Assembly: GCA_009782245.1 (NCBI GenBank)
Contig: WRKK01000360.1
Location: forward strand, 1 to 36,282
Source: Defluviitaleaceae bacterium
GTDB taxonomy: Bacteria; Bacillota; Clostridia; Lachnospirales; WQUN01
Length of the DNA stretch: 36,282 bases
Direction of reading: 5' to 3'
The position numbers and the translations under genes are program-made. Below the pieces are notes generated by a model. It was not told where the DNA came from and ran no database searches. It saw only the letters and a program-made list of their open reading frames with translations. Shown here piece after piece: positions 1,438-23,546 of the stretch (positions are counted from its first letter, which is position 1; each line of letters opens with the position of its first letter).

Positions 1438-1632
1438 ATGAATGCAGTCGCACAAATACATGATATAGCCGAAAGGCTAGATAAACCAGAGCAAGAGTTA
1501 GTTTTAGCACTAATGAAAAGGCTATTACCAGACTACATAGCCACCGCCGAAGATATAGCCGATATAGCCAAAGCAAGAGAAGAATACGCACAAGGCAAAA
1601 CAGTAAACTTTGACAACCTTGATTGGGATTGA
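1438..1632 (+). CDS. small helical protein (64 aa), first gene of the operon; antitoxin- or regulator-like size
   Basis: ATG lies 8 nt after the AAGGGGGA SD. The gene ends about 20 nt before the next gene. No DNA-binding motif recognised. Confidence 0.6.
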   Translation: MNAVAQIHDIAERLDKPEQELVLALMKRLLPDYIATAEDIADIAKAREEYAQGKTVNFDNLDWD

Positions 1633-1652
1633 TTAACAGAAAGGGGAATAAA

Positions 1653-2690
1653 ATGACAAATCTTCGTGAAGAGCAAATAAGCCGAATTACAATAAACGGC
1701 TATAAATCAATAAAATCCGCCGATATTAAGCTGGAAAATATTAACGTGCTTATCGGCTGCAACGGTGCGGGCAAATCTAATTTTGTTTCGGTTTTTGAAT
1801 TGTTGCAAGCAAGATTATATGGAAAAACTTGCGAATACGGAATAAAAAAGGGAGCAAGCACTCTATTTTACAACAGTCCAAAAGTTACTGAAAAAATTTT
1901 GTTGCAGTTTTACGATAACGGCGGCATAAATACCACATATAGATTTGGACTGTCCGAGGAAAGTGAACTTATAAATTTGAACCCTACAACAGTTGTTGGA
2001 AATTATTGGGATTCTATAGATAAATATGCGAAATCTCAACGCCAATGGAAAATATACCATTGCAACGATACAAGCCCAATGGCAAAAATCAAGCAAGACA
2101 GCGACATTGCCAACAACGAAATGCTTTTGCAAGATTTTCGCAACTTGTCGGCGTTCTTGTATCGGCTAAAAAACGATTATCCAAAAAATTACGCTGATAT
2201 TGTGCAAACAATTCAACTTATAGCCCCATTTTTTGCGGATTTTGTGCTAATCCCACAAGGAGAACACCAGCAATATATTGTGCTACGTTGGCAAGAAAAA
2301 GCCTTTGAAGATACTTTCTCCGCATCGCAACTATCGGACGGCACATTGCGGTTTATCTGCCTTGCAACCTTACTATTACAGCCGCCAGAATTACAACCAG
2401 CCACAATTATAATTGACGAGCCAGAATTAGGCTTGCACCCTGTTGCAACCACAATTTTTGCGGAATTGGTCAAAAAAGCCGCCACAAACAAGCAAATAAT
2501 TTTGTCAACCCAATCTGTGGAACTGCTAAATCATTTCGCCGTCGAAGATGTTATTGTGGTTGACAGGGACGAAAACGGCTCACAATTTAAGCGGCTAAAC
2601 TCCGCACAGCTTGCGGATTGGCTTGAAGATGATTACACTTTGGGCGATTTGTGGAAGAAAAATATTATCGGCGGGAGGTTTGCACAATGA
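1653..2690 (+). CDS. ABC-type AAA family ATPase (AAA_15/AAA_21, COG4637-like)
   Basis: The preferred start is ATG 1653 after the AAAGGGG SD. Motifs seen: Walker A GCNGAGKSN, signature-like SQLSDGTLRF, Walker B IIIDEPELGLHP, ILSTQS, and the C-terminal LGDLWKKNIIGG typical of this ATPase class. Confidence 0.85.
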   Translation: MTNLREEQISRITINGYKSIKSADIKLENINVLIGCNGAGKSNFVSVFELLQARLYGKTCEYGIKKGASTLFYNSPKVTEKILLQFYDNGGINTTYRFGLSEESELINLNPTTVVGNYWDSIDKYAKSQRQWKIYHCNDTSPMAKIKQDSDIANNEMLLQDFRNLSAFLYRLKNDYPKNYADIVQTIQLIAPFFADFVLIPQGEHQQYIVLRWQEKAFEDTFSASQLSDGTLRFICLATLLLQPPELQPATIIIDEPELGLHPVATTIFAELVKKAATNKQIILSTQSVELLNHFAVEDVIVVDRDENGSQFKRLNSAQLADWLEDDYTLGDLWKKNIIGGRFAQ

Positions 2691-3307
2691 GTCGACTTTT
2701 GGTATACTGTGAGGGTGCAACCGAAGAACTTTTCATTAAAGATGTGCTTGCTCCGTATTTGCTAACTGCAAATATTTACGCAAAGCCGATTGGAGCAGAC
2801 GGTGCAAGCAAATACAGCAAGATAAAAACAGAGTTGACAAAATTAGGCAAAAATGATTCGCAAGCAATAATAACAACAATGTTTGATTATTACGCATTAC
2901 CCAACGAAACGCCAGGCGTTAAAAATGCAACAGGCTCGCTATATGAAAAAATACAGCATATCGAATCCGCCGTTAATACGGATTTAGGATTACCAAACGT
3001 GTTTTTCAACTTGATTGTGCATGAATTTGAGGGATTATTATTTGCAGACACAACCGCATTTGCCGATATTGCAAACGAAACCCAACTTGTAGATTTAGCA
3101 AAAATAAGGCAAAAATTTAATTCGCCAGAGCATATAAATAAATCTTACGAAACTGCTCCGTCAAGGCGTATTTTGGGAATTATTCAAAATTATAGCAAAG
3201 TTTTGGACGGCACAAAAATAGCAAAAATCATTGGAATTAACAAAATTTCGGCGGAATGTCCGCATTTTGCCGATTGGGTTAAAAATATATCCCCCAAGGA
3301 GGAATAA
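2687..3307 (+). CDS. DUF4276-like (Toprim/OLD-nuclease-like) partner protein
   Basis: An ATGA start/stop overlap links it to the ATPase gene. The N-terminus MSRLLVYCEGATEELFIKDVLAPYL matches the conserved EG.tE start of DUF4276 proteins, which are usually encoded next to this ATPase class. Confidence 0.75.
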   Translation: MSRLLVYCEGATEELFIKDVLAPYLLTANIYAKPIGADGASKYSKIKTELTKLGKNDSQAIITTMFDYYALPNETPGVKNATGSLYEKIQHIESAVNTDLGLPNVFFNLIVHEFEGLLFADTTAFADIANETQLVDLAKIRQKFNSPEHINKSYETAPSRRILGIIQNYSKVLDGTKIAKIIGINKISAECPHFADWVKNISPKEE

Positions 3308-3309
3308 AA

Positions 3310-4200
3310 ATGGCAATTATTGGCATAAGCATAAAAAACGTGCTTGCTTTTCAACAGAATTTCACAGCGGATTTTTGCACTGGTATAAATGTAATTATCG
3401 GCGAAAACGGCGTAGGCAAAACAACACTACTAAAAGCCCTTCACGATAGCGAGGATATATATGAAATCAACAGAACAAAGCCAATTCCATCTTTTGGAAA
3501 AGAAGAGGAAAAAAGTTCTGTTTCTCTTGAATGTGCAGGCAAAATTGATTATCAAATATACATCCCAGAAAAAGATATCTTGGAAAACGCCAGAGGATTA
3601 TTACCATTCGTAATGAAAAAAGACACAGCGTTTAGCGATATATACAAAAATGTATTGATTTCAGCACAAGATATACCAACAAGCGAGCAAACCGAAACAC
3701 AACGCTCGCTAGGCGAAAAAATAAGCAACATAATTGGCGGAACTGTCGAATGGGTTGCAAGCGAGGGAACTTATTACACAATAAAAAAAACAGGCTTGCG
3801 AGTGCCTTTTTTACGGGAGGCATCTGGTTATAAAAAACTGGGCTATTTAGGAATACAAATCGCCAGCGGACAACTAGAACCAGGCAGCATACTTTTTTGG
3901 GATGAACCCGAAAATAGCTTAAATCCTGCACTTGCATCACAATTAGTTGACATTTTGCTAGAGCTTTCCCGCAGCGGCGTGCAAATTTTTATTGCAACCC
4001 ACAATGAAGTTTTTGCAAGCTATTTTGCTGTCAACCGCCAAAACGGCGACAACGTTCTGTTTACATCTCTCTACAAAGACGGCGAGGAGATAAAAGCCGA
4101 TACAAGCCACCGTTTCGACTTTCTTACTCCCAACAGCTTAACGGCAGAGCCTGTTAAACTTTACGAAAAACATCTCGAAAAGGGGCTTGGCAATGATTGA
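3310..4200 (+). CDS. second ABC-type AAA family ATPase (296 aa)
   Basis: It starts 2 nt after the previous stop. Motifs seen: Walker A GENGVGKTT, signature-like ASGYKKLGYL, Walker B ILFWDEPENSLNP and an H-loop-like IATHN. Confidence 0.85.
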   Translation: MAIIGISIKNVLAFQQNFTADFCTGINVIIGENGVGKTTLLKALHDSEDIYEINRTKPIPSFGKEEEKSSVSLECAGKIDYQIYIPEKDILENARGLLPFVMKKDTAFSDIYKNVLISAQDIPTSEQTETQRSLGEKISNIIGGTVEWVASEGTYYTIKKTGLRVPFLREASGYKKLGYLGIQIASGQLEPGSILFWDEPENSLNPALASQLVDILLELSRSGVQIFIATHNEVFASYFAVNRQNGDNVLFTSLYKDGEEIKADTSHRFDFLTPNSLTAEPVKLYEKHLEKGLGND

Positions 4201-4723
4201 AATTATTGAAGAAAGTGGCATGAATTTTATTGCCGAAAACGCTTTTTACATTGAAAAATCTCCAATATATGCGGCGTTAAACAAACGTACAAAACAAAAC
4301 GAAAAGGGCATTAGTTCGGTGGAATTTATTCGCCGCAAGGGAGGAAAATTGCTATTTATCGAGGCAAAAACCACTTTTCCCAATCCTGATAATCCGCCAA
4401 AAGAAAATCCCCAGCGATTTGCGGAAGCGGTCGCCGAAATTTGCGAAAAATTTATACATTCGCTAAACTTGTACTATGCCATTTTGGCGGGCGTTCACAG
4501 CGAATCACAAATTAACAATATCAATGCAAGCGACAATTTAACCATTGCATTTGTGCTAGTTATAAAGGTTAGTCAGCCAGACTGGTGCAGAATAATAGAA
4601 ACAAAAATAAATGAAACATTACCAATCTACATAAAAAAAATTTGGGATCCAGAAGTTTTTGTAATGAATCACGAAAAAGCCATAGGGCGAAATCTGGCAA
4701 CCCAAAAAAAGGAAAAACCATGA
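4193..4723 (+). CDS. hypothetical protein (176 aa) with a PD-(D/E)xK-like motif
   Basis: ATG 4193 follows the AAAAGGGG SD and overlaps the upstream stop (ATGATTGA). The segment SSVEFIRRKGGKLLFIEAKT has the E/D...ExK spacing of restriction-endonuclease-fold nucleases. This is an inference. Confidence 0.6.
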   Translation: MIEIIEESGMNFIAENAFYIEKSPIYAALNKRTKQNEKGISSVEFIRRKGGKLLFIEAKTTFPNPDNPPKENPQRFAEAVAEICEKFIHSLNLYYAILAGVHSESQINNINASDNLTIAFVLVIKVSQPDWCRIIETKINETLPIYIKKIWDPEVFVMNHEKAIGRNLATQKKEKP

Positions 4724-7339: not shown

Positions 7340-7361
7340 AAAATTAAGTTAAAATTAAGTT
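7340..7361 (-). repeat. 2 x 11-nt tandem repeat (AACTTAATTTT on the gene strand) between the MATE stop and the GH3 SD
   Basis: Read directly from the sequence: aaaattaagtt aaaattaagtt on the plus strand. Confidence 0.9.
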
Positions 7362-8677
7362 CACACGCTCTTAACCACGTGCAGCCACTTTTTCTGCCAC
7401 ATTCGTATTATACACCAAATGCTCTTTATCAGCAAGTCCACCCGCAGTAGCACGGCAATCCAAAATGGCGACAAAAACAGCACAAACCCCGCCAAATAGC
7501 CCAGCGGAATAGACGCAACCCACATAAAAAGTACGTCCGCCACCATTAAAAATTTTGTATCGCCGCCGCCGCGCAAAACGCCCTTTGTTAGCACGTTGGA
7601 AATCACGTGAAACGGCATTGCTGCGACCATTGCCCACATTAAGCCGTCCAAAATTAGCAGGGTTTCGGGCTCGATGTCGTAAAAAATCAGCAAAATTGGC
7701 GTAAATATCAAAATCGCAACGCTAGAGATTAGCCCCAAAACGGCACTTAGCAACAGATATGTAAAGCCCCGTGCCTCGGCTTTTTGCAGGTCGTTTTCGC
7801 CGATTGCCGTGCCAACCATTATGCTGCTTGCATTGGACATTCCCATGATAAACACGCCCGCCAACTGCGTTGCGACCATGATAATTGCGTTCGCCGCCGC
7901 CATTGCACTACCCAGCCAGCCCCAAATCATGGCAAGTGCGGTTGTGCCGAACGCCAAAATTAAATCGCCGATAATAACAGGCGAACCGATACGCAAATAT
8001 TCTGGGATAAGCTGTCCGCAAGGTTTTAGCAGGTCTTTCAGGCGATAGCGGACACGTTTTTCTGCAAAAAACAGGTAGCCCGCCACAACAGCGAACTCGA
8101 TGAACCTAGCAATAACGGTCGCCAACGCCGCACCAGCAATCTCCATGCGGGGCGCACCGAGGTTGCCAAAAATGAACACCCAGTTAAAAAACGCCGCCGC
8201 CGCAAACGAGAGAACGCTCGCAATTAGCGGCACACGCACAACGCCGAAAGAACGCCCGATTATGGCTAAAGTTGTGCCTAATCCCATAAAAATGAACTGG
8301 AACGCAATAATTTGCAAATAAAGCGCGCCAACCGCAATAACGTCCGCCTCGGGCGTGTAAATTCGCATTATGCCCTGCGGCACAAAAAACGTTACCAAAG
8401 TGAATAAAAATGCAAACACTAAAATAATGCGTATTGCCAAGGTAATAACTTGCTTAACGGCGGGAATATCGCCTTTGCCCATATATTGCGATGTCATAAC
8501 CATAGCGCCGCCGCCAACGCCGAAACAACATATCATAAAGAAAAACACAAACTGGTTGCCCAAAGATGCCGCCGCTATGGCGGTTTCGCCCAGCCCGCCG
8601 ACCATAACAGTACCCAAAATGCCAACGCCCATGTTTACCATGCTTTGTAGCGATGCGGGTAACATTATGCGCCACAT
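7361..8677 (-). CDS. MATE family efflux transporter
   Basis: 438-aa polytopic membrane ORF with a MATE-like N-terminus (MLPASLQSMVNMGVGILGTVMVGGLGETAIAAASLGNQ). An in-frame TGA lies 21 codons upstream of the ATG. Confidence 0.85.
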   Translation of the reverse strand: MWRIMLPASLQSMVNMGVGILGTVMVGGLGETAIAAASLGNQFVFFFMICCFGVGGGAMVMTSQYMGKGDIPAVKQVITLAIRIILVFAFLFTLVTFFVPQGIMRIYTPEADVIAVGALYLQIIAFQFIFMGLGTTLAIIGRSFGVVRVPLIASVLSFAAAAFFNWVFIFGNLGAPRMEIAGAALATVIARFIEFAVVAGYLFFAEKRVRYRLKDLLKPCGQLIPEYLRIGSPVIIGDLILAFGTTALAMIWGWLGSAMAAANAIIMVATQLAGVFIMGMSNASSIMVGTAIGENDLQKAEARGFTYLLLSAVLGLISSVAILIFTPILLIFYDIEPETLLILDGLMWAMVAAMPFHVISNVLTKGVLRGGGDTKFLMVADVLFMWVASIPLGYLAGFVLFLSPFWIAVLLRVDLLIKSIWCIIRMWQKKWLHVVKSV

Positions 8678-8844: not shown

Positions 8845-9324
8845 CTAATACACCACCGAAACACTGCCATCTCTGCCAATAGCACGAAAACAATTCGTAT
8901 AAACCTCAATAAATTCGTATCCTCCGTGTATGGCAATCGAGCGGGCTTTTTCAAGTCCATCTGGCAACGGCTGACCTCTTCTGTAATGCTCAATAATATC
9001 GTCGATAATATCAAGGCGATGCACCTCGTAATCCTCGCCCAAATGGCATTTTGACACTATGCCCATAAAATCGCCGTCAAGTTCTATTTCAGGAAATTCT
9101 TGACGAAGTGCTTCGATAATTTCTTTGGCTTTGCCGTGGTTGTGGATTTTGCCGCCAACATCTAGCTTGCTTACGGTTTCCATATATTGCTTGGAACGCT
9201 GTTTTCTTAATAATTTGTCAATTTTTAGCGGGTCGCCGCCTGCTTTTGTTTCGGTTTTAGCTGTTAAACTTAGCATATAGTCCGTTTCTGTCTTTTGCCT
9301 AGTTCCTAGCATTGGTTTTGGCAC
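8845..9324 (-). CDS. hypothetical protein (159 aa), last gene of the five-gene operon
   Basis: A GTG start at 9324 lies 6 nt after the AGGAGGA SD. No signal peptide or TM segment. No family recognised. Confidence 0.7.
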   Translation of the reverse strand: MPKPMLGTRQKTETDYMLSLTAKTETKAGGDPLKIDKLLRKQRSKQYMETVSKLDVGGKIHNHGKAKEIIEALRQEFPEIELDGDFMGIVSKCHLGEDYEVHRLDIIDDIIEHYRRGQPLPDGLEKARSIAIHGGYEFIEVYTNCFRAIGRDGSVSVVY

Positions 9325-9336
9325 GTTTTCGTCCTC

Positions 9337-9363
9337 CTAATTTTTCTAACGTTTCTAATTTTG
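9337..9363 (-). repeat. 3 x 9-nt imperfect tandem repeat (CAAAATTAG/AAACGTTAG/AAAAATTAG on the gene strand)
   Basis: It spans the AAA+ stop codon and runs into the SD of the next gene. It gives three in-frame TAGs 9 nt apart. Confidence 0.85.
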
Positions 9364-10932
9364 AACAAACATTTTGCGTGATTTTTGGCTTGGTTTCGCA
9401 ATATCCTCTAGCCCTATCGGTTTTCCAGATGCTGGCACAGCACGGTGCCGCCCCCAGTTTCTCACATTTTCAATGCGTTCTGGGGTTGTCTGCGAAAGTG
9501 GAATAACCGAGTCAAATGCGGCAATTACGCTTTCTTCGCTCAAAACAAAGTTGCTATTTGACAAAGTTGCATAAGCAAGATCGCGCAATGTAGATTCTAA
9601 ATCAGCACCCGTAAAACCACTAGTAATTTCCACGACTTGTGCCATAAGAGTTTGCGAAAAGGTTGTTTTTAGGTATCGGCGAGCATACAGCGAAATAATC
9701 TCGTCTCTTTCTTTTGCGGTGGGCAAATCGACAAAGAAAAGTTCGTCAAATCTTCCACGGCGCAAAAGTTCACTGGGCAATAACGATATATCATTGGCGG
9801 TAGCCACAACGAAAACTTGTTTTTTACATTCCTGCAACCAAAACAAAAATTGCCCAACCATTCTGGTAGAAACTCCGCCGTCCCTACTGCCGCTTGTTGC
9901 ACCCGATAAACCTTTTTCAATTTCGTCAATCCACAATATGCACGGCGAAACGTGTTCCGCTGTAATTAGTGCATCTTTAAGCTGTTGCTCTGATTGCCCA
10001 ACGTAACTGCCCTGAACAGTCGCAAAATCCAGCCTGTAAAGCGGCAAATTCCAATTTAGGGCAATCGATTTTGCCGACATTGATTTTCCGCAGCCTGGAA
10101 CGCCCACCAACAAAATTCCTCTGGGCGGCTGTAATCCTCTGGCGCGCAATTCGTCTCTTTTTTCCGCAGTCAAAAGAATCCGCTTTTCATCTAGCCATTT
10201 GCGAAGACCCTCCAAACCGCCCACGTTAGCAAGGTTGGAATCCACTTCAACGCGTTCTAAGCCAGAAATATCGGCAAACAGGCGATCTTTAGCAAAACGC
10301 ACCTCGTTCAAATCGTCTTTTGTGATTTTTCGTTTCGCTATCAAAGCGGCTATTACATTCTGTGCCTCAATCCGAGTTACGCCCGAAAGCATAGATGCCG
10401 CCTCTCGTATGTCTTCGTTGTCCCAATCAATGGGGATTTCGGTGCGATAGTCGTCGATGTATTCTTTTATAATTTCAAACATTTCGGATTCGTCTGGCAA
10501 ATCAACGTTTAGCACCATGCCAAGCCGTTGCAGCTGATTCCAAACAGGGCTGTTGGTAAGTATAATTATAGCACCGCTCGATTCCTCTGCTAATGTAACT
10601 AAATCCAGCATTTGCCGTGCATCGCTGCTATCGGTGCTTAAATCTGGCGTTTCTGTTAGTATCAATGTAAGATACTGGCGGCGTTTCATTTGTTCGCTCA
10701 TAAAATCTATAGCGCCGTATACTGTTTTGTCGTCGCTTACTGCTTTTTCGCTGGCTAAATCGTAAATTCCTTTTGACAAGGTGTGAACAAAAAAGGTCAT
10801 CGATAAATCTGTTGATATATTTTTAAGCATTTCTAATGTGCGACCACGTTCAATAGTGTTTATGGCTATGAATGGGATTCTTGCCACCGCATAGCGGTGC
10901 AAAAGGTCTTTACATTCAGCAATATTACTCAT
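9355..10932 (-). CDS. classical AAA+ ATPase, Ycf46-like (525 aa)
   Basis: Motifs seen: Walker A GVPGCGKS (K283), Walker B ILWIDEIEK (E337), sensor-1 VVATAND and SRH/Arg fingers LLRRGRFDE. The block GKSMSAKSIALNWNLPLYRLD...VSPCILWIDEIEK and the tail IPLSQTTPERIENVRNWGRHRAVPAS resemble Ycf46-type ATPases. The N-terminal ~240 aa look like a degenerate nucleotide-binding domain. A strong AAAGGAG SD precedes the gene. Confidence 0.85.
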   Translation of the reverse strand: MSNIAECKDLLHRYAVARIPFIAINTIERGRTLEMLKNISTDLSMTFFVHTLSKGIYDLASEKAVSDDKTVYGAIDFMSEQMKRRQYLTLILTETPDLSTDSSDARQMLDLVTLAEESSGAIIILTNSPVWNQLQRLGMVLNVDLPDESEMFEIIKEYIDDYRTEIPIDWDNEDIREAASMLSGVTRIEAQNVIAALIAKRKITKDDLNEVRFAKDRLFADISGLERVEVDSNLANVGGLEGLRKWLDEKRILLTAEKRDELRARGLQPPRGILLVGVPGCGKSMSAKSIALNWNLPLYRLDFATVQGSYVGQSEQQLKDALITAEHVSPCILWIDEIEKGLSGATSGSRDGGVSTRMVGQFLFWLQECKKQVFVVATANDISLLPSELLRRGRFDELFFVDLPTAKERDEIISLYARRYLKTTFSQTLMAQVVEITSGFTGADLESTLRDLAYATLSNSNFVLSEESVIAAFDSVIPLSQTTPERIENVRNWGRHRAVPASGKPIGLEDIAKPSQKSRKMFVQN

Positions 10933-10946
10933 TAAAATTCTCCTTT

Positions 10947-10996
10947 GATTTTAGTTGATTTTAGTTGATTTTAGTTGGTTTTAGTTGATTTTAGTT
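10947..10996 (-). repeat. 5 x 10-nt tandem repeat (AACTAAAATC on the gene strand) abutting the SD of the AAA+ gene
   Basis: gattttagtt x5 on the plus strand, with one G variant. It sits between the stop of the 152-aa gene (11004) and the SD at 10940-10946. Confidence 0.95.
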
Positions 10997-11003
10997 AAAT
11001 CCA

Positions 11004-11462
11004 TCAAATCTCGTTTATTTTATAATTCCGAATAAGTACGCTCATTTTGCCACTTCTGTCCGATCGTGCCGAACTTTCCAAGGAAGATTGCATACGGTCG
11101 GCGTGTTCCCGAACAAGGGAGCAATAATGCACCCTGTCCTTTTTGGGAAGTGCGGGCATATCCATTATATCTAGCAAAAACGACAATTCTTTTCGCAAGG
11201 AAAGCAACGCTTGCACGATTGCCCTTTCTTGCCCGTTTGCTCTGGAGATTTCTTTTTGGAATTTTTCCGCAGCGGCATCTAATCTAGCGTTGACTGTGTC
11301 AATTAGTTTTTTGGCAAAACGCTCGGCAACGCCAGATTGCCAGGCAATTTTGCCTTGTTTTAACGCCGTGCGGACGTTTTCGTCGTCGGTTTTTTGCTCT
11401 AGCATATTCAATAATTCCACCCACTCTGCGTAAGTAGTGGGTGGCTGTATCATGCCGCTCAT
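11004..11462 (-). CDS. hypothetical all-helical protein (152 aa)
   Basis: Its start overlaps the upstream stop (ATGA at 11459-11462). No family recognised. Confidence 0.7.
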   Translation of the reverse strand: MSGMIQPPTTYAEWVELLNMLEQKTDDENVRTALKQGKIAWQSGVAERFAKKLIDTVNARLDAAAEKFQKEISRANGQERAIVQALLSLRKELSFLLDIMDMPALPKKDRVHYCSLVREHADRMQSSLESSARSDRSGKMSVLIRNYKINEI

Positions 11463-12163
11463 AATGCCCTAGGCTTACGCCTTATTGCAATGACTGGCGG
11501 TTCAATGCTCCAATCCGGAAGACCCTTAGCCAAAGGAGAATCGTCAATAATATCGATGGTGTCAACAGTCTCAACAGTCTCAACAGTCTCAATAATATCA
11601 ATAGTTTGGGCTGTGCCGTCATATTTTTCAGCGGGGCTTTCTGGTTTTTCTGGTTTTTCTGGTATAATTTCTTCGGGTGCAACATTTGCTACAACTGGCG
11701 TTTCTGGTAAATAAGGCTCTATTTTAGGCGTTATTTCCTTTGTTTCAGGTTCTATTTCAATTTTTATTTCAGTCTCTATTTCAGGTTCTATTTCGGGCTC
11801 TATTTCAAGTTCTATTTCAGGTTCTATTTCAATTTTTATTTCGGGCTTTATTTCCGCATTTTGGGCGGTTTCCATTGTTGGATTAGGAACAGCGGTATCA
11901 ACATCAGCGGCTGCTCCACAAAATTCGCAAAATCTGCCAAATTCTGGTATTTTTGCACCGCATTTGGTACAAAATACAGTCGTTATCGCCGCATTTTCAT
12001 TAGAAAAATTTGGAAAATTTGGCTCTATTTCTGCATTTTGGGCGTTTTCCGTTATTGGATTATGAGCAGAAGTATCAATTTCAACGGCTGCTCCGCAAAA
12101 TTCGCAAAATCTGCCAAATTCTGGTATTTTCGCACCACATTTATTGCAAGTGTCATTTGCCAT
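11459..12163 (-). CDS. double zinc-ribbon protein with an acidic repeat region (234 aa)
   Basis: It has two near-identical C.KCGAKIPEFGRFCEFCGAA modules (CxxC-x11-CxxC). These are followed by EIKPEIKIEIEPEIELEIEPEIEPEIETEIKIEIEPE and IDIIETVETVETVDTIDIID repeats. Confidence 0.8.
   Translation of the reverse strand: MANDTCNKCGAKIPEFGRFCEFCGAAVEIDTSAHNPITENAQNAEIEPNFPNFSNENAAITTVFCTKCGAKIPEFGRFCEFCGAAADVDTAVPNPTMETAQNAEIKPEIKIEIEPEIELEIEPEIEPEIETEIKIEIEPETKEITPKIEPYLPETPVVANVAPEEIIPEKPEKPESPAEKYDGTAQTIDIIETVETVETVDTIDIIDDSPLAKGLPDWSIEPPVIAIRRKPRAL
11559..11594 (-). repeat. 4 x 9-nt in-frame coding tandem repeat (ETV units)
   Basis: gtgtcaaca gtctcaaca gtctcaaca gtctcaata on the plus strand. 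Confidence 0.9.
11745..11855 (-). repeat. degenerate 12-nt in-frame coding tandem repeats (PEIE/IEIK units)
   Basis: Recurring ttctatttcagg / ttctatttcaat / ttttatttc units on the plus strand. Confidence 0.85.
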
Positions 12164-12191
12164 TGTTAATAAATTCCTTTCTAATTTCTAT

Positions 12192-12227
12192 GTCTGTATT
12201 GTCTGTGTTGTCTGTGTTGTCTATGTT
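12192..12227 (-). repeat. 4 x 9-nt tandem repeat (AACACAGAC-type on the gene strand) between the 589-aa gene stop and the zinc-ribbon gene SD
   Basis: gtctgtatt gtctgtgtt gtctgtgtt gtctatgtt on the plus strand. Confidence 0.95.
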
Positions 12228-13996
12228 TACGCCACTTTTAAGCGGCGGCTAGTATCCGACAGTTTGCGGACGTATTCTTCGGGTTTAATTTGCTCCAGCA
12301 GGTTCAAAACTTTTGTGCTTTCGGAATCTTTTTTCGCAAAATATGCCCTAAAATCAACCACTTCGGCAATGACAGCACGGATAATTCCAACTCCGTCTTT
12401 CTTTTTTTTGTCAAATTCATAAGCAATCTGTTGGCGGCGAAGTTCAACTGCTTTTTTTCTGGAAAAATGGTGCAAAATTAAGCCAATGCCGCCTGCTATG
12501 CCCAACAAGCCAAGAAACACCCAGCCGCCACCGTTAAGCATTGCCAATAGCCCAATTACAGCAACTCCGATGCCGCCATACATACAATATTGCTCAAAAA
12601 CTGTCATAGTGTTGGCGGCGTTGGCAACGCTTATTTCCCCTGCGACCATTTTCTCAAATTTGGCGACAAGTTCCGCCTCGTTTTTCCCGTCTACAGTGTT
12701 ATCGTTAAAATTATCAACATTTATCTCGATATTGTGGGGAATTTCCATGCGATTTTTTGCTACAATATCGTTGTAGGCGTTGGAAATCCAATCACGGGAA
12801 AGGGCTATTGCAAATTTTTGCGTAGAAATACTGGCGTGTGCGGTTTCGGGTTTCATTGCGGCATCGGTAAGCAGTTGGGTAAAATCTTTGTGTGTTTCAA
12901 AGGTTGTTTGCAGCGACTGCATATCTTGTTTTGCACGGTTTTCGTCGCCGTCATATTCAATAACTAGTTCCGTTTGCTTGTATTCCTGGCGTAGCGGGAT
13001 TTCTTCCTCATCAAAATCTGTTACCAAAGAAGATAGTATTTCGTCAAGTTGCTCCCGCAGAGCCATTCCAGAGGATTGCTGTTCAAAAATATTTTCAAAA
13101 TACGCATATATTTCTTCGTGAAGATGTGCGCCTTCCATTATTTTTTGCAGTTTAGACCACGTTTTGCTATATTTTTTGAGATAGGTGTATGAATCTCCGC
13201 TAAACGGCTTTTTTTTGAGATTTATAGCCTCCGACCACTGGCTAGTTTGTTGGTCTACAAAGCCAGCTTTATCCGCCAGACGTGTCAGCCATTCCTCTAG
13301 TTGTCGGGCTACAATTCCCTCGGAATCTGCACCGAGCAAACCCGATGCAAAAGCATCAAGTATGATAACGGTTTTTCTGTCAAGCCTTTCTTCGTCTTGG
13401 TTGGCTAGATAGCGTTGTATCCATTTTAGGCAAGGTGCTTTACGTTCGGCACGGCGGCAAATTAAGCCAAATAGCAGAGAAGTTTTTTCGTCGTCGCGTT
13501 TTATGGCCTCACGGACGGCTCTATCGGCTAATTCTTCGTTATCGTTAATCCATGCGGAAATTGCAACCAAACAAGGTGCCAGCCAATAGCCAGGAGCGGC
13601 TAACATTAGTTCTTCGGTTACGGTTGTAATTGTTTCTTTGCGTACTATTTCCAGATCGTCGGCTTGCAAAATGCCGACCGTGTGTTTTCGCACCGTTTCG
13701 TGATGTCCAAATTGGTCTTTTAGTTTATCTCGCAAGTTGCCAATTTTCGCCTCCGCACGAATTAGTGCTTTTTGTTTTATGTCTGTTTGTACAAACTCGG
13801 CAAAATCTGCTGCAAGTTTTGCTACTTCGCTGTTAATTAGCCTGACGTTGTCGTCAACTGTGATTACATGGTTATCAATAACTCTAAGATTGCTACGTAC
13901 TTCGTTGAAACCATCGTTTAGGTTAGCGTTGATGTTCTCGTTGACTCTACTTAAGTTCTTGTTTATTGCGTTAATGATGTCTACTCCATCAGCCAT
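12227..13996 (-). CDS. coiled-coil protein with a C-proximal Gly-rich two-helix membrane hairpin (589 aa)
   Basis: A strong SD precedes it (ataGGAGGAacgtataATG). The N-terminal ~110 aa are an N/I/V/L-rich heptad-like region, followed by a long helical middle. The TM hairpin is YCMYGGIGVAVIGLLAMLNGGGWVFLGLLGIAGGIGLILHHF (aa 470-511, nt 12464-12589), followed by a 78-aa charged tail. Confidence 0.8.
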   Translation of the reverse strand: MADGVDIINAINKNLSRVNENINANLNDGFNEVRSNLRVIDNHVITVDDNVRLINSEVAKLAADFAEFVQTDIKQKALIRAEAKIGNLRDKLKDQFGHHETVRKHTVGILQADDLEIVRKETITTVTEELMLAAPGYWLAPCLVAISAWINDNEELADRAVREAIKRDDEKTSLLFGLICRRAERKAPCLKWIQRYLANQDEERLDRKTVIILDAFASGLLGADSEGIVARQLEEWLTRLADKAGFVDQQTSQWSEAINLKKKPFSGDSYTYLKKYSKTWSKLQKIMEGAHLHEEIYAYFENIFEQQSSGMALREQLDEILSSLVTDFDEEEIPLRQEYKQTELVIEYDGDENRAKQDMQSLQTTFETHKDFTQLLTDAAMKPETAHASISTQKFAIALSRDWISNAYNDIVAKNRMEIPHNIEINVDNFNDNTVDGKNEAELVAKFEKMVAGEISVANAANTMTVFEQYCMYGGIGVAVIGLLAMLNGGGWVFLGLLGIAGGIGLILHHFSRKKAVELRRQQIAYEFDKKKKDGVGIIRAVIAEVVDFRAYFAKKDSESTKVLNLLEQIKPEEYVRKLSDTSRRLKVA

Positions 13997-14044
13997 TATA
14001 CGTTCCTCCTATGATTCTATATTGAGATTTTATTTCCCGCACAT

Positions 14045-14073
14045 AGTATACAGGTTGGCAAGCTGTTTGTCAA
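14045..14073 (-). promoter_or_regulatory. sigma-A type promoter of the five-gene operon
   Basis: The minus strand reads TTGACA (14073-14068), a 17-nt spacer, then TATACT (14050-14045). It lies about 45 nt upstream of the start codon. Confidence 0.65.
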
Positions 14074-14115
14074 TAGGTAAAATAAGTTTTGCTAGAAAAA
14101 TTTTTTGGTGGATTT

Positions 14116-14129
14116 TGCATATTTATGCA
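14116..14129. promoter_or_regulatory. palindrome TGCATA-nn-TATGCA upstream of the operon promoter (candidate operator)
   Basis: tgcatatttatgca is a perfect 6-bp inverted repeat. A 13/14 match lies at 8763-8776 upstream of the MATE gene. Confidence 0.4.
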
Positions 14130-14173
14130 GAATGTGAAGATTGCACAGTTGGATAATTGGAAAAATTATCAAC

Positions 14174-14764
14174 CTAAATTTCCAGATAGTTAAATCGGCT
14201 TGTCATAAAGTTGGATATTTTGTTTTGGCGGTCGGTTTCTAGCCAATGTTTGCCGTTTGGGGTTAATTCGAAGTTGTAGATTGCGTTGTTGATGTCTGGG
14301 TTGTAGTTGGTTTTTAGGTATTTTAGGACGTTTTCGCCAACGATAAATTTTAATTTAGGAGAATCCATTAACCTAACTGTGATTTTTTCAAGGCGTATCG
14401 GCTGCGACGATAACGAACGCACACCGAGAGTCAAATAATCCAAACAAACCTCATAAGCCCTAATCTTGGTATTATCGCCTAATATGGTGGCTTTTTCCAT
14501 CATTGGCAATGTTTCAAATGTAAAATCGGCTGGAGATTTTAAGCCCAAAAGTTTCATAAGTGGCGGATTTTCTTCGAAAAGTAGCTCATCTAATCCCATA
14601 GTTTTCCACAAAGGATAGGTCATATGGCAAACCGTAGCACCTGTGTCGAAAAGTGAAATCCATTCGCCGCTTTTTTCGCCACATTCTAATTTTACGTTGC
14701 CGTATAAAAATTTACCTTTGTTGATGTCAATTCGGCAAATAGAGGTCATAAACACCCAACCCAT
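14174..14764 (-). CDS. retropepsin-like (clan AA) aspartic protease
   Basis: SLFDTGATVCHM contains the D-T-G-A active-site motif, and KFIVGENVLKYL matches the C-terminal hhG.d.L motif. There is no signal peptide or TM segment. An alternative start at 14749 (MTSICRIDINKGKF) is possible. The gene overlaps the upstream gene by 23-38 nt. Confidence 0.75.
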   Translation of the reverse strand: MGWVFMTSICRIDINKGKFLYGNVKLECGEKSGEWISLFDTGATVCHMTYPLWKTMGLDELLFEENPPLMKLLGLKSPADFTFETLPMMEKATILGDNTKIRAYEVCLDYLTLGVRSLSSQPIRLEKITVRLMDSPKLKFIVGENVLKYLKTNYNPDINNAIYNFELTPNGKHWLETDRQNKISNFMTSRFNYLEI

Positions 14765-14987
14765 CTATTAACGAAAGCCCCTCGCCAACGCTGTATTTTT
14801 GCGGAATTGGTCTAGGTAAATCGTAGTATTCTTGCGGCGTAAGTATTGCCACAATATCGCCCTTTATTCGGGAGTTTTCCGAATGACCATTGATTATTAT
14901 TAAATATTTATCGTGATATTCCTGCATCATGTCGTCAATTATTACGTCATGTTCCAAAATTTCGTGTTCGCTGTCAAAATTAAACAT
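14727..14987 (-). CDS. small protein (86 aa), paralogue B
   Basis: MFNFDSEHEILEHDVIIDDM... is about 50 percent identical to the product of 14992-15315. It has an AAAAGGGG SD and starts 4 nt after the upstream stop. Confidence 0.75.
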   Translation of the reverse strand: MFNFDSEHEILEHDVIIDDMMQEYHDKYLIIINGHSENSRIKGDIVAILTPQEYYDLPRPIPQKYSVGEGLSLIDGLGVYDLYLPN

Positions 14988-14991
14988 AATT

Positions 14992-15315
14992 TTACCCCTT
15001 TTCTAGTTTTTGTTGGTGTTTTTGATACATTTCATCGGCTAACGCCCATTTGTATAATAAGAAGTCCGTGTTGTGGGTATCGTCCATTTGCAATGAAATT
15101 CCCACCCAAACGCTGTAACCTCGCGGCATTGGTTTAGGAAATTTTATTTTGCTGTACTCCGCAGGAGTTAATATTGCCAAAACATCGCCGTGAATCCGAC
15201 TATCTGTGGACGGCCTGCTGACCGCTATCATAAATTTATCGGGATATTTGTCTTCCATATCCTCGATTATCACGTCATGTTCCAAAATTTCGTGTTCTCC
15301 GTCAAAACTGAACAT
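14992..15315 (-). CDS. small protein (107 aa), paralogue A
   Basis: The preferred start is ATG 15315 (MFSFDGEHEILEHDVIIEDM...). This is by analogy to paralogue B and because an AAAGGGA SD lies 7 nt upstream. The ORF track start at 15357 lacks an SD. Confidence 0.7.
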   Translation of the reverse strand: MFSFDGEHEILEHDVIIEDMEDKYPDKFMIAVSRPSTDSRIHGDVLAILTPAEYSKIKFPKPMPRGYSVWVGISLQMDDTHNTDFLLYKWALADEMYQKHQQKLEKG

Positions 15316-15347
15316 AAAATCGTCCCTTTCTGCTAACCGTTTTTTCC

Positions 15348-15376
15348 AGTATAACACAAAATTTGCTGATTATCAA
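15348..15376 (-). promoter_or_regulatory. sigma-A type promoter of the paralogue/protease operon
   Basis: The minus strand reads TTGATA (15376-15371), a 17-nt spacer, then TATACT (15353-15348). Confidence 0.55.
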
Positions 15377-15430: not shown

Positions 15431-15459
15431 TTGACAAGGCAGTTTTCATTTGGTATAAT
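15431..15459 (+). promoter_or_regulatory. consensus sigma-A promoter
   Basis: TTGACA (15431-15436), a 17-nt spacer, then TATAAT (15454-15459). Confidence 0.7.
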
Positions 15460-15494
15460 TTCAGCATAACAACCCACGAAACGGAGTGATTACA

Positions 15495-15899
15495 ATGAAA
15501 TACACAAGAGCAGACGAAAACGCCATTAGTTTTCGCCAATACATAGAAAATTTGGAACAGCGGTATCAAGAGGATAGGCGTGAATCCGAGCGACGCTATC
15601 AAGAACACATAGCCGCAGTTGAACGCCGCCGCCTAATCGATTACAAGCAACTGGAACGCCGCCGCATAAAAGCCGAAGAGCAAGCCGAAAAACGTTACAA
15701 CGAAGCAGAAGAGCGCCGTCAAAAAGCAGAAGAACAAGCCGAAAAACGTTACCTTGAATCCGAAAAACGCTACACAGCCGCCGAGCAAGCCCGCATAAAA
15801 GAATACAAAAGCATGAAATGGTTTATCATGGGTAGCGTATTTTTACCTTTTTTGATTGCCTTGATGGTCGCACTATTTCCGACAATACAGCAAAATTAG
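15495..15899 (+). CDS. tail-anchored coiled-coil protein (134 aa)
   Basis: ATG 15495 lies 8 nt after the ACGGAG SD. The protein is R/E/Q/K-rich with internal repeats (AEEQAEKRY x2, RRYQE x2) and one C-terminal TM helix (WFIMGSVFLPFLIALMVALF). Confidence 0.7.
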   Translation: MKYTRADENAISFRQYIENLEQRYQEDRRESERRYQEHIAAVERRRLIDYKQLERRRIKAEEQAEKRYNEAEERRQKAEEQAEKRYLESEKRYTAAEQARIKEYKSMKWFIMGSVFLPFLIALMVALFPTIQQN

Positions 15900-17663: not shown

Positions 17664-17683
17664 GTAATTAGGGAGTGATAAGA

Positions 17684-18628
17684 ATGATTGTCAACGTAAG
17701 AACAAACATGATGTCGCTAAATTCTTATAGAAATTTGCGGTTGGTTGCAACAAGGCAAAACAGGGCTTCGCAGCGGCTTTCTTCGGGTTTTAGAATTAAC
17801 ACAGCCGCCGATGATGCCGCAGGTTTGTCTATATCCGAAAAAATGCGAGCCCAAATCAAGGGCTTGGATCAAGCGGCACAAAACGCACAAGATGCAAACA
17901 GTCTTATTCAGACGGCAGAGGGGGCAATGTCAACCATTAACGAGATGGTTGTGCGTATTCGGGAATTAGTGGTGCAGGCGGCAAACGACACCAATGCACA
18001 CGATGCCACCGATGCCGCCGCATGGTCGCAATCAGACCGCACACGCATACAAGCCGAAATCAACCAACTTTTAGCCGAAATTGACGCAACCACAGACCGC
18101 ACACAGTTTAACACTCGCAACTTAATAGACGGCACTTTAAGCGCCGACCGTGCAATCGGCAGAGAGTTGTGGTTTCAGGTGGGTGCTAACGTGGGGCAGG
18201 GTATGCGGCTTAGCATAGAGGCGATAAACGTTGAGGCACTTAGTCAAGTCGGGCTTTCTTTTGCTAGTGCTGTGCCAGCGGGCTTTAGCTTTGCAGAGTT
18301 GCGCACCGTGGACACCAGCATTGCGGCGGCTGGGCAAGGAATACTACGTGAAAACGGCGAAGAAATAAGCAAGTTTATCACCGCCATAGATTTTGCACTA
18401 TCTTTTGTAACCGAACAACGGGCTAAATTAGAGGATTTGGAAGACATAATAGAAAACCTTAACATAGCCGCCGAAAACCTAACAGCCGCAAAATCACGCA
18501 TACAAGATGCCGACATGGCAAAAGAAATGATGCAGCTAACGCAAGCCAATGTACTGCAACAAGCGGCGTTATTTATGCTCGCCCAAGCAAATCAAGCACC
18601 GCAAACGGTGTTGCAGTTGCTGAATTAG
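17684..18628 (+). CDS. fliC: flagellin
   Basis: ATG 17684 lies 8 nt after the TAGGGAG SD. The N-terminus LSSGFRINTAADDAAGLSISEKMRAQIKGLDQAAQNAQDANSLIQTAEGA and the C-terminus AKSRIQDADMAKEMMQLTQANVLQQAALFMLAQANQAPQ are the canonical conserved flagellin ends. Confidence 0.9.
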   Translation: MIVNVRTNMMSLNSYRNLRLVATRQNRASQRLSSGFRINTAADDAAGLSISEKMRAQIKGLDQAAQNAQDANSLIQTAEGAMSTINEMVVRIRELVVQAANDTNAHDATDAAAWSQSDRTRIQAEINQLLAEIDATTDRTQFNTRNLIDGTLSADRAIGRELWFQVGANVGQGMRLSIEAINVEALSQVGLSFASAVPAGFSFAELRTVDTSIAAAGQGILRENGEEISKFITAIDFALSFVTEQRAKLEDLEDIIENLNIAAENLTAAKSRIQDADMAKEMMQLTQANVLQQAALFMLAQANQAPQTVLQLLN

Positions 18629-18661: not shown

Positions 18662-19204
18662 CTACAAAGACATATGCCGTAAATCCAATGCCAAACCGCT
18701 GTGCGTAACCAAAATTTCTTTTAATGTTTGCGATTTTAGCTTTGCCGTTCCCAGATATTTGGCGACGGTATTTTTGTGCTGAAAAATATACCAATGCTCC
18801 GTTATGGGGGAAGTTTCGTATAACGCTTGCTTTAGTTTCCTTTCGGGGGGCTTGTTGGAATTTGACCAGACTTCTATAATTAAATCTGGATACCCCGCTA
18901 CTTTAGTTTCGTCTCGGCTAAGGATATATTTGTGCTTGTCAAACAGCATAATATCGGGGATATAGCTGGGAAGAGAATCCAAATAATCCCTGTCTTTGGC
19001 ATCGCTTAATTTGATGTTTAGCAGCTCCGCTTTGTGGTTGTCTTCCAAAGAACGCCTGTATATCAAGCCCATGTTTTCCTGTTTTATGAACGGCTTGATT
19101 TCAAAATTATTTCCAAAATTATTTCTAAGATAATAAAACAATTCGCCCGTCAAATCGGAATGACGGTTTTGTGGAGAAGACATTTCTGCAAAATATACAC
19201 CCAT
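18662..19204 (-). CDS. Uma2 family (DUF820) restriction-endonuclease-fold protein
   Basis: SSPQNRH, PDIMLF and PDLIIEVWSNSN...EHWYI match the SP..H / PDl / PDlvvEv.S / eYWiv motif series of Uma2 proteins. Confidence 0.65.
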   Translation of the reverse strand: MGVYFAEMSSPQNRHSDLTGELFYYLRNNFGNNFEIKPFIKQENMGLIYRRSLEDNHKAELLNIKLSDAKDRDYLDSLPSYIPDIMLFDKHKYILSRDETKVAGYPDLIIEVWSNSNKPPERKLKQALYETSPITEHWYIFQHKNTVAKYLGTAKLKSQTLKEILVTHSGLALDLRHMSL

Positions 19205-22736: not shown

Positions 22737-23546
22737 TTACCCCAATTTTTGCAACAGCCACGTAAAACACACCAAAGAATCATCGTTTTCAATATCGGCG
22801 TATTCGTTTTGTTGGCTTGTTACGTAACTTTGGAACAATTCCGCCTTATCGGGATATGCTTTTGTTAGTTCGTTGGCACGGTTGGCTACTGCGGCAGCGC
22901 CTGTGGTGCTGTCTAAATTTTCGGCGTTTTCGCTTGTATCGCTGATGTTTTCCGTTGCGATAAGTTTTAATTTTTGGGTTTGCAAAAGTTTATCCCATTC
23001 ATTTTTGGTTAAATATTCTGCATCGTACTTTGCGGCGGCGTTTTTGCTTGTTAGATAGGCATCGTCTATTAAAATATAGCCGCCGTTTTTCAGCAACGGC
23101 AATATTTTTGCAAAAGTTGTACTATAATCGCCCAAAATTGACCCTATTGCACCCAAGATAATGCAGTCATATTGGGTTTTTTCGGTTATTACATCGTTAA
23201 TGTCTTTTACCGCAAATGTGCATAAATCGGCTACGCCAAATTCTTCGGCTTTTGCCTGGGCAACCGCTATAAATGACGGCATTATGTCCACGCCAGTTAT
23301 TGGGATTTTTAACTGTTGGGCGATTTTTACTGATACTGCACCTTTTCCGCAGCCTAAATCCAATATAGCGGCGTTTTGGGGCAATTTTGCGTGGTTGCTA
23401 ATTAAATTTATCATTATGGCTGGCTCGCTGCCTAATTCCCAAAAATCTTGCAGCAGATAGGGCAAAAAAGGCAGAAGTTCCACGCTTTCCGCCGTTAAAG
23501 ATTTTGCCAAACGGTTTTTTACATCTTCATTTTCTGGTGCTGACAT
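22737..23546 (-). CDS. class I SAM-dependent methyltransferase
   Basis: Motif I is AILDLGCGKGAVS. The post-I/II pattern is GVDIMP...FAVKD...YDCIILGAI. The protein is 269 aa. Confidence 0.85.
   Translation of the reverse strand: MSAPENEDVKNRLAKSLTAESVELLPFLPYLLQDFWELGSEPAIMINLISNHAKLPQNAAILDLGCGKGAVSVKIAQQLKIPITGVDIMPSFIAVAQAKAEEFGVADLCTFAVKDINDVITEKTQYDCIILGAIGSILGDYSTTFAKILPLLKNGGYILIDDAYLTSKNAAAKYDAEYLTKNEWDKLLQTQKLKLIATENISDTSENAENLDSTTGAAAVANRANELTKAYPDKAELFQSYVTSQQNEYADIENDDSLVCFTWLLQKLG

Follow-up and report, generated by a model that had tools for sequence, protein, structure and literature searches.

A co-inherited five-gene cassette pairing an AAA+ ATPase with a predicted membrane-hairpin protein, and its toxin-bearing relatives

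What does an operon do when database searches recognise, in the five proteins that it encodes, only one ATPase domain and a set of zinc ribbons? The question is raised by a stretch of 36,282 nucleotides (nt) from a Defluviitaleaceae bacterium (contig WRKK01000360.1), referred to here in its whole length as the window, in which five minus-strand genes, g1 to g5, stand in a row. A first-pass annotation, made from the letters of the DNA alone, had proposed them as a candidate undescribed system composed of a membrane-hairpin protein (G1), a zinc-ribbon protein (G2), a helical protein (G3), an AAA+ ATPase (G4) and a small soluble protein (G5). Scans of the five proteins and of four upstream open reading frames (ORFs) against Pfam, NCBIfam, PADLOC and PHROGs recognised nothing beyond the zinc ribbons and the AAA domain. 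We find that the five genes are a true co-inherited unit, not a chance cluster, and that in some cassettes of this kind genes for a HerA ATPase and for polymorphic toxins with their immunity proteins have been merged into the same stretch of DNA.

Conservation, spread and extended form of the cassette

G1 was detected in 127 of approximately 185,000 representative species, in a pattern-limited scan that took one genome per species, and 80 independent genome loci were then analysed. At these loci, tblastn searches with the window proteins recovered G1 80 times, G3 and G4 74 times each and G5 68 times; the gene order was constant throughout, and G1, G3, G4 and G5 were complete and collinear in 68 of the 80. 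All incomplete cassettes were cut by a contig end, save for a single locus described below. G2 proved too variable for BLAST and was tracked instead by its C-terminal motif ([SA]xFAxGLPxW[SD][IL]xPPxxxxRR), which is found at 62 of the 68 loci and is confined there to G2. Together with permuted proteobacterial copies that hold all five genes, the 68 collinear loci bear out the proposal of a syntenic, conserved unit, and the five proteins are inherited together across Firmicutes, Fusobacteria and Proteobacteria.

The single exceptional locus, L050 (uncultured Ruminococcus sp., CAMMBV010000020.1), carries a G1 homologue with 10 kb of downstream sequence but without G3, G4 or G5; the ORFs that follow the homologue there are large and unrelated (686, 1175 and 636 amino acids, aa).

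The hosts comprise Lachnospiraceae, Oscillospiraceae, Acutalibacteraceae, Phascolarctobacterium, Erysipelotrichales, Mogibacterium, Clostridium and, among the streptococci, Streptococcus mitis, S. oralis and S. sanguinis. From Bacilli and Clostridia to Negativicutes and Erysipelotrichales, the homologues share a steady 53-62% identity with the G1 of the window; such a level, held whatever the class, is the pattern expected of horizontal spread. Annotated collections added a G1 homologue in Fusobacterium vincentii (49% identity), and further homologues reside on a 643-kb plasmid of Comamonas antarctica (36%) and on two small plasmids of Komagataeibacter nataicola (26 kb and 38 kb; 33%). Two annotated proteobacterial loci were examined, on the Comamonas plasmid and on the 26-kb Komagataeibacter plasmid; each carries the full set of five genes, arranged as G5-G1-G2-G3-G4, and hmmsearch recovered G5 at 8e-43, G3 at 1e-36, G4 at 1e-216 and the G2 motif at 1e-5. 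The annotated 26-kb plasmid places the cassette next to insertion sequence (IS) elements and a RelE/ParE toxin gene. In the S. oralis satellite phage Javan368 (L091, MK448457.1) the cassette forms the terminal 4.6 kb (9674-14257), after the integrase, regulator and replication genes; it may be true satellite cargo or an adjacent islet. Presence of G1 varies between strains of one Streptococcus species group, and the flanking genes are unrelated from locus to locus, mostly metabolic or housekeeping, with some loci set among core genes (nusA-infB-truB, rpsD, greA-lysS). Plasmids, a satellite prophage, patchy spread and unrelated flanks agree with the accessory context that had been proposed for the operon and mark it as mobile.

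Two details of the streptococcal copies are recorded here. The deposited Javan368 record stops exactly at the stop codon of its G5 gene. Elsewhere among the streptococci the cassette adjoins rpsD, with a short ORF between rpsD and G1 that belongs to a cluster whose full-length members have approximately 420 aa; as a guess, this ORF may be an integrase remnant.

The merger with other genes is seen at 15 loci, which carry two further genes, here called c6 and c7, directly upstream of G1. The product of c6 has approximately 300 aa, with an N-terminal zinc ribbon and C-terminal transmembrane (TM) helices (for example L058:6339-7253), and that of c7 is a DUF87/HerA-type ATPase of approximately 890 aa (4.7e-8; for example L009:7212-9884). 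In 12 of the 15 c7 loci, and at no locus without c7, a protein with [FY]xDC repeats is encoded between G4 and G5. The toxin loci are L007, L008, L009, L015, L019, L035, L046, L047, L054, L058, L052, L084, L095 and L096, and independently found homologues of the toxin N-terminus occupy the same G4-G5 slot in L095 and L096-98. Cultured carriers of the extended form include Dorea sp. YH-dor226, Faecalicatena contorta ET51 and Lachnospiraceae bacterium P6A3. The [FY]xDC proteins have an acidic N-terminus with two to four [DE]x[FY][DENS]DC repeats, a coiled-coil middle and a variable C-terminus, which belongs to the WHH HNH nuclease/colicin DNase type (5.9e-13), to the Tox-PL1 glutamine deamidase type (4.3e-15) or to one of three HExxH types. 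The small gene 3' of the toxin changes family in step with the toxin type, which is the signature of toxin-immunity pairs in the definition of polymorphic toxin systems (Zhang et al. 2012, PMC3482391). A constant N-terminus, a variable toxin C-terminus and an immunity gene immediately downstream together mark such systems, and this combination is found in the related loci and not in the window. No signal peptide was recognised by eye in the [FY]xDC toxins, the family was matched to no described trafficking domain, and no other secretion genes were found in the extended loci. The window itself holds no c6, c7, toxin, ribbon-tagged accessory protein or recurring cell-wall enzyme of the kinds seen in the extended loci, and its g4-g5 gap of 30 nt means that no toxin is held there.

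Some further features recur around the extended cassettes. The pair c6/c7, in which c6 always precedes c7, occurs only directly upstream of G1 homologues or, in L080, downstream; the N-terminal part of c7, approximately 380 aa, is uncharacterised. Zinc-ribbon-tagged proteins recur near the cassette, in the form of ribbon-TM-C-type-lectin-like proteins, ribbon-TM-M48 peptidases and proteins with a C-terminal ribbon (for example L039:14789-15676, L084:13926-15023 and L007:19278-19808), and their recurrence suggests that, in the versions from Firmicutes, the zinc ribbon may serve as a common docking tag. Cell-wall enzymes that recur nearby are GH3 enzymes, M15 D-Ala-D-Ala dipeptidases and a class-A beta-lactamase-like protein.

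The five proteins

G4 has the features of classical-clade AAA+ proteins, namely Walker A (GVPGCGKS, 277-284, with K283), Walker B (ILWIDE, 332-337, with D336/E337), pore loop 1 (Y310-V311-G312) and the arginine fingers of the second region of homology (LLRRGRFDE, 389-397, arginines 391-394). The match to PF00004 (8e-28) covers an active module at aa 273-402, plus a lid, and the closest solved relatives are the D2 domains of VAT, p97 and Cdc48 (E 4e-53). The N-domain (aa 1-230) has no P-loop and is conserved as a degenerate nucleotide-binding-like domain. Identity is 69-75% across Firmicutes, and a full-length match was obtained to phrog_8638 (3e-101), as well as to genes annotated 'AAA+ ATPase' in phages of Pseudomonas and mycobacteria; in PADLOC the top match, to IetA (7.5e-32), covers the AAA module only (aa 251-476). 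We interpret G4, from its motifs, as a predicted Cdc48-D2-like AAA+ unfoldase of the hexameric type with a degenerate N-domain. Its layout of an inactive N-half and one C-terminal AAA agrees with the earlier description as Ycf46-like, a family membership judged by architecture alone, as Pfam, NCBIfam, PADLOC and PHROGs in the form searched hold no Ycf46 model.

G1 belongs to a family of more than 1,800 close homologues, all of them 'hypothetical' and without Pfam domains. An exhaustive profile search gathered 910 G1 clusters at 50% identity, nearly all full length (560-600 aa), and no added catalytic domain was found among them; in G1 itself no Pfam, NCBIfam or PHROG match and no catalytic motif were found. 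The AlphaFold2 (AF2) model (predicted local distance difference test, pLDDT, 80) is all-helical, with a helix at 5-115, a TPR-like region at 120-260, bundles at 280-417, a hairpin at 466-515 and then a long C-terminal helix. The basic stretch that follows the hairpin predicts that both termini of G1 are cytoplasmic. Six hairpin glycines (474, 475, 482, 496, 503 and 505) are conserved in at least 90% of the Firmicutes homologues; the proteobacterial homologues keep the hairpin with fewer glycines. Conservation peaks in the cytoplasmic body, for example in RRDDEKTS and LLTDAAMKP, and within the hairpin it concerns chiefly the glycines. We interpret G1, as modelled, as a large cytoplasmic helical scaffold predicted to be held at the membrane by its two-helix hairpin.

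Fold comparisons did not place G1 further. The best Foldseek matches of the model in the PDB were AhlB, SmhB and MakA (E 0.008-0.1, TM-scores 0.13-0.30), followed by TPR proteins, and no match reached E<=0.001 in PDB or BFVD. In PADLOC, aa 314-534 weakly matched the stalk/paddle part of LeoBC (1.6e-5). A profile search of the G1 alignment against PDB sequences returned coiled-coil noise only, of the same kind (haemagglutinin HA2, de novo helical designs, annexin) as the searches with G3 and G5. As neither G1 nor G5 has a significant structural match, we make no fold-based assignment for either; for G1 this applies to a pore-forming toxin, a TPR protein and a dynamin stalk, for each of which no match at E<=0.001 was found.

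A second hydrophobic helix of G1 (PGYWLAPCLVAxxAWI, aa 130-148) is highly conserved; it is TM-like by hydropathy, yet modelled as buried in the TPR-like region, and could be a latent membrane-insertion element.

G2 is largely disordered, and its sole universal part is the C-terminal GLPxW..PP..RR peptide. In the window protein, two zinc ribbons that match the Pfam families Zn_Ribbon_1 and DZR are joined to this peptide by an acidic low-complexity linker. The G2 proteins of Streptococcus (58 aa), of L053 and of Komagataeibacter and Comamonas (61-64 aa) have no ribbon and retain only the C-terminal motif of approximately 25 aa. The earlier description of G2 as a zinc-ribbon sensor/adaptor therefore stands as regards the ribbons, which are real, and falls as regards a core sensor role: we reject the ribbon as a conserved sensor, since it is missing from every proteobacterial G2, from those of the streptococci and from some of the clostridial ones. 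PADLOC matches of G2 were spurious Cas12 zinc-finger hits only.

The two remaining proteins, G3 and G5, are small and soluble, and both are obligate partners. The 152-aa, basic and probably helical G3 was found in 74 of 74 loci with G4, and an ATGA overlap couples its translation to that of G2. In G5 a disordered N-terminal tail of approximately 30 aa, with the sequence MPxPML, leads into a compact alpha/beta domain (AF2 pLDDT 74), with invariant polar residues R40, R43, S44, Y47, D55, E76, C93, E100, H102, H113, R128 and E140, and it accompanies the cassette even with the permuted proteobacterial order. Neither protein matched a family in Pfam, NCBIfam, PADLOC or PHROGs; the G3 alignment profile, like that of G5, met only noise among PDB sequences, and the best Foldseek match of G5 in the PDB (E 0.33) does not qualify as a structural neighbour.

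Candidate functions and the setting of the locus

Tentatively, and with somewhat less than even confidence, we read the cassette as a platform on which an AAA+ ATPase, docked at the membrane, handles proteins, and which stems from the mobile 'conflict' gene pool. We envision that G4 would dock on the cytoplasmic face of a G1 oligomer, that G2 would act as an adaptor through its tail motif, with its optional zinc ribbons perhaps recruiting clients or other ribbon-tagged membrane proteins, and that G4 would thread or remodel clients at the membrane, which would then be moved into or across it, or released. The disordered N-tail of G5 and the disordered body of G2 would both be suited to AAA+ engagement. 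In the extended relatives, the zinc-ribbon membrane protein c6 and the HerA/FtsK-type pump c7 would join the platform, and the joined platform would be the only plausible export route for the signal-less [FY]xDC toxins; the window would represent a minimal, toxin-less core, whose client may come from among its own subunits or be the product of a gene elsewhere. We favour the platform because a toxin cassette is embedded in the operon and there is no other candidate exporter. A more specific proposal is that the cassette forms the core of an unrecognised export or toxin-delivery apparatus, in Firmicutes and some diderms, by which the acidic [FY]xDC leader is recognised. This we consider conceivable but doubtful; such an apparatus would share the logic of type VII secretion with unrelated parts, G1 to G5, and in its full form c6 and the HerA pump.

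Several points weigh against the platform. Approximately three quarters of the cassettes, including those of the window, the streptococci and the Proteobacteria, are without HerA and toxin, so that toxin export cannot be the core's universal job. No component showed homology to a known translocon, and the cassettes of diderm hosts include no outer-membrane component. What is conserved in the hairpin is mainly its character, as would suit an anchor no less than a channel, and the most conserved parts of G1 are cytoplasmic. A search for [FY]xDC toxins away from the module returned five proteins, all in modules, and, as low-complexity words saturated the candidates, the absence of toxins outside the module rests on few cases. 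The contacts among G1, G2 and G4 are themselves putative.

The first-pass annotation had seen a resemblance to abortive-infection or membrane-stress modules; relatives with a HerA ATPase and toxin/immunity pairs, the most informative observation made here, point at least as strongly to protein handling or export as to abortive infection. As an abortive-infection defence against phages, or against plasmids, a reading that we hold to be possible rather than probable, the cassette would receive a phage cue through G2, G3 or G5, upon which ATP-driven G4 would convert the G1 bundle into a membrane-perforating or depolarising oligomer; the toxins of the extended loci would be add-on effectors. The patchy, horizontal-looking distribution and the carriage on plasmids and in a satellite prophage slot speak for this, as defence systems are typically housed in phage-inducible chromosomal islands (PICI) and P4 satellites, and occurrence in both monoderm and diderm hosts fits action on the cytoplasmic membrane from inside. 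The hairpin of G1 is Gly-rich and the best fold matches of the protein are alpha-pore-forming toxins, but these matches are not significant (TM <= 0.3); the top PADLOC match of G4 is IetA. No recognisable sensor, nuclease or NTP-signalling domain was seen in the cassette. The immunity genes matched to toxin type are a signature of interbacterial antagonism, not of suicide effectors, and conservation across classes is unusually high for a defence system (approximately 70% identity for G4 and 57% for G1); the cassette is missing from PADLOC v2 including its candidate systems. As regards neighbours, the candidate pairs HEC-01 and HEC-02 lie approximately 4 kb beyond g5 on the 3' side of the operon, and a survey of 148 non-redundant flanking proteins gave a few defence matches (MADS, AbiL, type I methyltransferase, AriA). 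As most of the flanking genes serve metabolism or housekeeping, the signal for a defence island is modest, and the survey lends the defence reading weak support.

A housekeeping role in the envelope, in membrane stress or membrane-protein quality control (Psp/ESCRT-III-Vps4-like, or FtsH/Msp1-like extraction), is improbable. An AAA+ unfoldase next to a membrane-anchored helical protein does resemble such systems, all five proteins are strongly conserved and some loci sit among core genes; but G1 occurs in only 127 of the species covered by the pattern-limited scan, is strain-variable in one Streptococcus group and travels on plasmids and a satellite. Nor was any PspA_IM30, Snf7, SPFH or MIT signal found, no protease domain stands alongside the AAA+, and the cassette is associated with polymorphic toxins. 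We regard as similarly improbable a role in the service of the carrying element, be it plasmid or satellite maintenance, competitor exclusion, or a transfer or packaging step. The small plasmids are non-mobilizable, the annotated one with its RelE/ParE toxin gene and IS elements, the cassette stands at the end of a satellite prophage, and phages of Pseudomonas and mycobacteria encode G4-like ATPases of full length; against this, most copies are chromosomal without adjacent element genes, G1 was matched once in 50,697 phage records, and no DNA-binding or replication domain was found.

These readings matter because G1, G3 and G5 are large families without a domain model, structural neighbour or literature, and yet the five proteins are co-inherited in hosts that range from Streptococcus and gut Clostridia to Acetobacteraceae, where they are plasmid-borne. 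The platform, if real, would be a new coupling of a Cdc48-type unfoldase to the membrane, and its extended form would be a new interbacterial toxin route in the dominant Gram-positives of gut, rumen and oral communities, where, to our knowledge, only T7SSb/LXG (type VIIb secretion with LXG toxins) is well established as a means of interbacterial toxin delivery in Gram-positives. The defence reading, if true, would add a multi-component membrane-acting immune system borne by satellites and plasmids. Either way, a widespread 'hypothetical' cassette gains testable roles, together with a new toxin leader, the [FY]xDC repeats, and new toxin-immunity pairs.

The layout of the locus is given in Table 1. 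The five ORFs and their junctions (63 nt between g1 and g2, an ATGA overlap of g2 and g3, then 71 nt and 30 nt) were all reproduced, as were the consensus promoter and strong Shine-Dalgarno sequence ahead of g1, and the protein-by-protein descriptions in the first-pass annotation (G1 hairpin, G2 ribbons, G4 AAA+ motifs and degenerate N-domain) were accurate. The GTG start of g5 is supported by homologues that likewise open with MPxPML. Promoter-like sites are not enriched in the window (19 observed versus 17.1 +/- 4.3 in shuffles); because this class does not exceed the shuffles, the g1 promoter is a plausible consensus match only. The upstream same-strand genes end 177 nt before g1 and no terminator is predicted in between, so that transcription may read through into g1. 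Within the operon, the only terminator-like match on its strand is weak, in keeping with the claimed lack of internal terminator hairpins; no convincing terminator was found inside the operon, nor an obvious one between g5 and the downstream MATE gene (7361-8677). An Rfam scan of the whole window gave no match, and no tRNA genes were found.

Table 1. Features of the cassette and of its surroundings in the window
Feature	Position	Strand	Details
g1	12227-13996	minus	589 aa
g2	11459-12163	minus	234 aa
g3	11004-11462	minus	152 aa
g4	9355-10932	minus	525 aa
g5	8845-9324	minus	159 aa, GTG start
Sigma-70-like promoter	14045..14073	minus	TTGACA-17 nt-TATACT, 11/12 consensus match
Shine-Dalgarno AGGAGG	14005..14010	minus	8 nt before g1 ATG
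G1 membrane hairpin, aa 469-512	12461..12592	minus	predicted from hydropathy; Gly-rich; basic stretch after
G1 second hydrophobic helix, aa 130-148	given as 12553-12609		
G2 zinc ribbons, aa 6-23 and 65-82	12095-12148, 11918-11971	minus	CxxC-x10-CxxC; Pfam Zn_Ribbon_1 1.3e-9
G2 C-terminal motif SPLAKGLPDWSIEPPVIAIRRKPRAL	11462-11542	minus	conserved
Terminator-like match	13593..13579	minus	weak, 6 pairs
HEC-01A/B	1623-3307	plus	PADLOC candidate pair, 3e-119 / 1e-68; ABC-type ATPase + DUF4276
HEC-02A/B	3310-4723	plus	PADLOC candidate pair, 1e-68 / 6e-35
Orphan ORFs u1-u4	14174-15357; 15486-15899	minus; plus	four small ORFs upstream of the operon
Promoter of u4	15431-15459		12/12 consensus match
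Flagellin gene	17675-18628		
Uma2-family endonuclease-like gene	18662-19204	minus	PDC-S03 2e-13
Methyltransferase gene	22737-23546	minus	MADS mad2-like match 4e-20

The orphan module next to the operon, which had been noted as a neighbour, proved to be unrelated: the four ORFs u1-u4 are carried by 0 of the 80 loci, and we reject them as part of the system. Among them, u2 and u3 (86 and 121 aa) are paralogues of each other, the only matches of u1 (196 aa), to DUF7738 and to an aspartyl protease, are faint, and u4, which has its own promoter, encodes a coiled coil with a C-terminal TM helix.

Comparison with known systems

The cassette lies outside the named systems, as the first-pass annotation had supposed. 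In PADLOC-DB v2.0.0, with defence catalogues covered up to 2023 and the PDC candidates included, no system fits: G3 and G5 have no match, and those of G1, G2 and G4 are weak, spurious or generic. Pfam, NCBIfam and PHROGs do not hold it either, and a full-text literature search, incomplete in coverage, found no description; given that coverage and the date of the catalogues, this means 'not found' and not 'proven absent'. Nor is it described in the passages on HerA, CDC48/classical AAA and zinc-ribbon proteins of two comparative-genomics papers, Zhang et al. (2012, PMC3482391) and Kaur et al. (2020, PMC7159879), or in those of the former on Tox-PL1.

An analogy to PspA/Vipp1 or ESCRT-III with Vps4 had been suggested, and an AAA+ ATPase beside helical membrane-associated proteins does recall these systems. 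We see no support for it: neither PspA_IM30 (PF04012) nor Snf7 (PF03357) was matched at E<=1 in G1, G3 or 43 G3 homologues, no PspA/Snf7-type fold is among the 50 Foldseek matches listed for G1, no MIT or other Pfam domain was matched in the G4 N-domain (1-230), and the distribution of the cassette is mobile and patchy, not that of housekeeping genes. The long helical region, membrane hairpin and C-terminal helix of G1 likewise recall the bacterial dynamin-like protein (BDLP) and mitofusin, and the weak LeoBC match points to Eleos; but no P-loop was matched in G1, a GTPase domain is missing from it and from the 910 clusters of its family, and BDLP is not among the 50 Foldseek matches listed. 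With the ClyA family (AhlB, SmhB, MakA) G1 shares long helical bundles and a hydrophobic hairpin, but it is twice as long, both its ends are predicted to be cytoplasmic and neither the E-values nor the TM-scores of these best matches are significant.

IetAS is similar in being a small mobile operon around a classical-clade AAA+, and the AAA module of G4 resembles IetA. However, G4 scores 86.7 bits against NCBIfam IteA_antiphage, versus a cut-off of 510, its degenerate N-domain is an addition to the IetA layout, and the four proteins that accompany it are unrelated to that system; no IetS-type protease (peptidase S8) was matched in the five proteins or their neighbours. The loading ATPase of extracellular contractile injection systems (eCIS) and Photorhabdus virulence cassettes (PVC), Pvc15/Afp15, has two AAA+ domains, one of them inactive, and acts on toxins by way of their disordered N-terminal leader. 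The likeness to it is by layout only, in the inactive and active domains of G4 and in associated toxins with a disordered acidic leader, and sheath, tube and baseplate genes are present in no locus.

With type VII secretion systems (T7SS), in the form of T7SSb EssC with LXG toxins or of ESX with EccA, the extended relatives have no more than a logic in common: one operon unites polymorphic toxins that have no signal peptide, and their immunity genes, with an FtsK/HerA-superfamily ATPase, an AAA+ ATPase and both membrane and small helical proteins. WXG100, LXG, EssA/B, EsaA and the multi-domain EssC are all missing, and in the window no EssC/EccC, WXG100, LXG or PE/PPE component was found by Pfam or NCBIfam. 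The HerA protein is a single DUF87 module, missing from most cassettes including that of the window, and the toxins are led by acidic [FY]xDC repeats. On present evidence we judge the cassette to be new as a system, with a function that we infer from its parts and its relatives.

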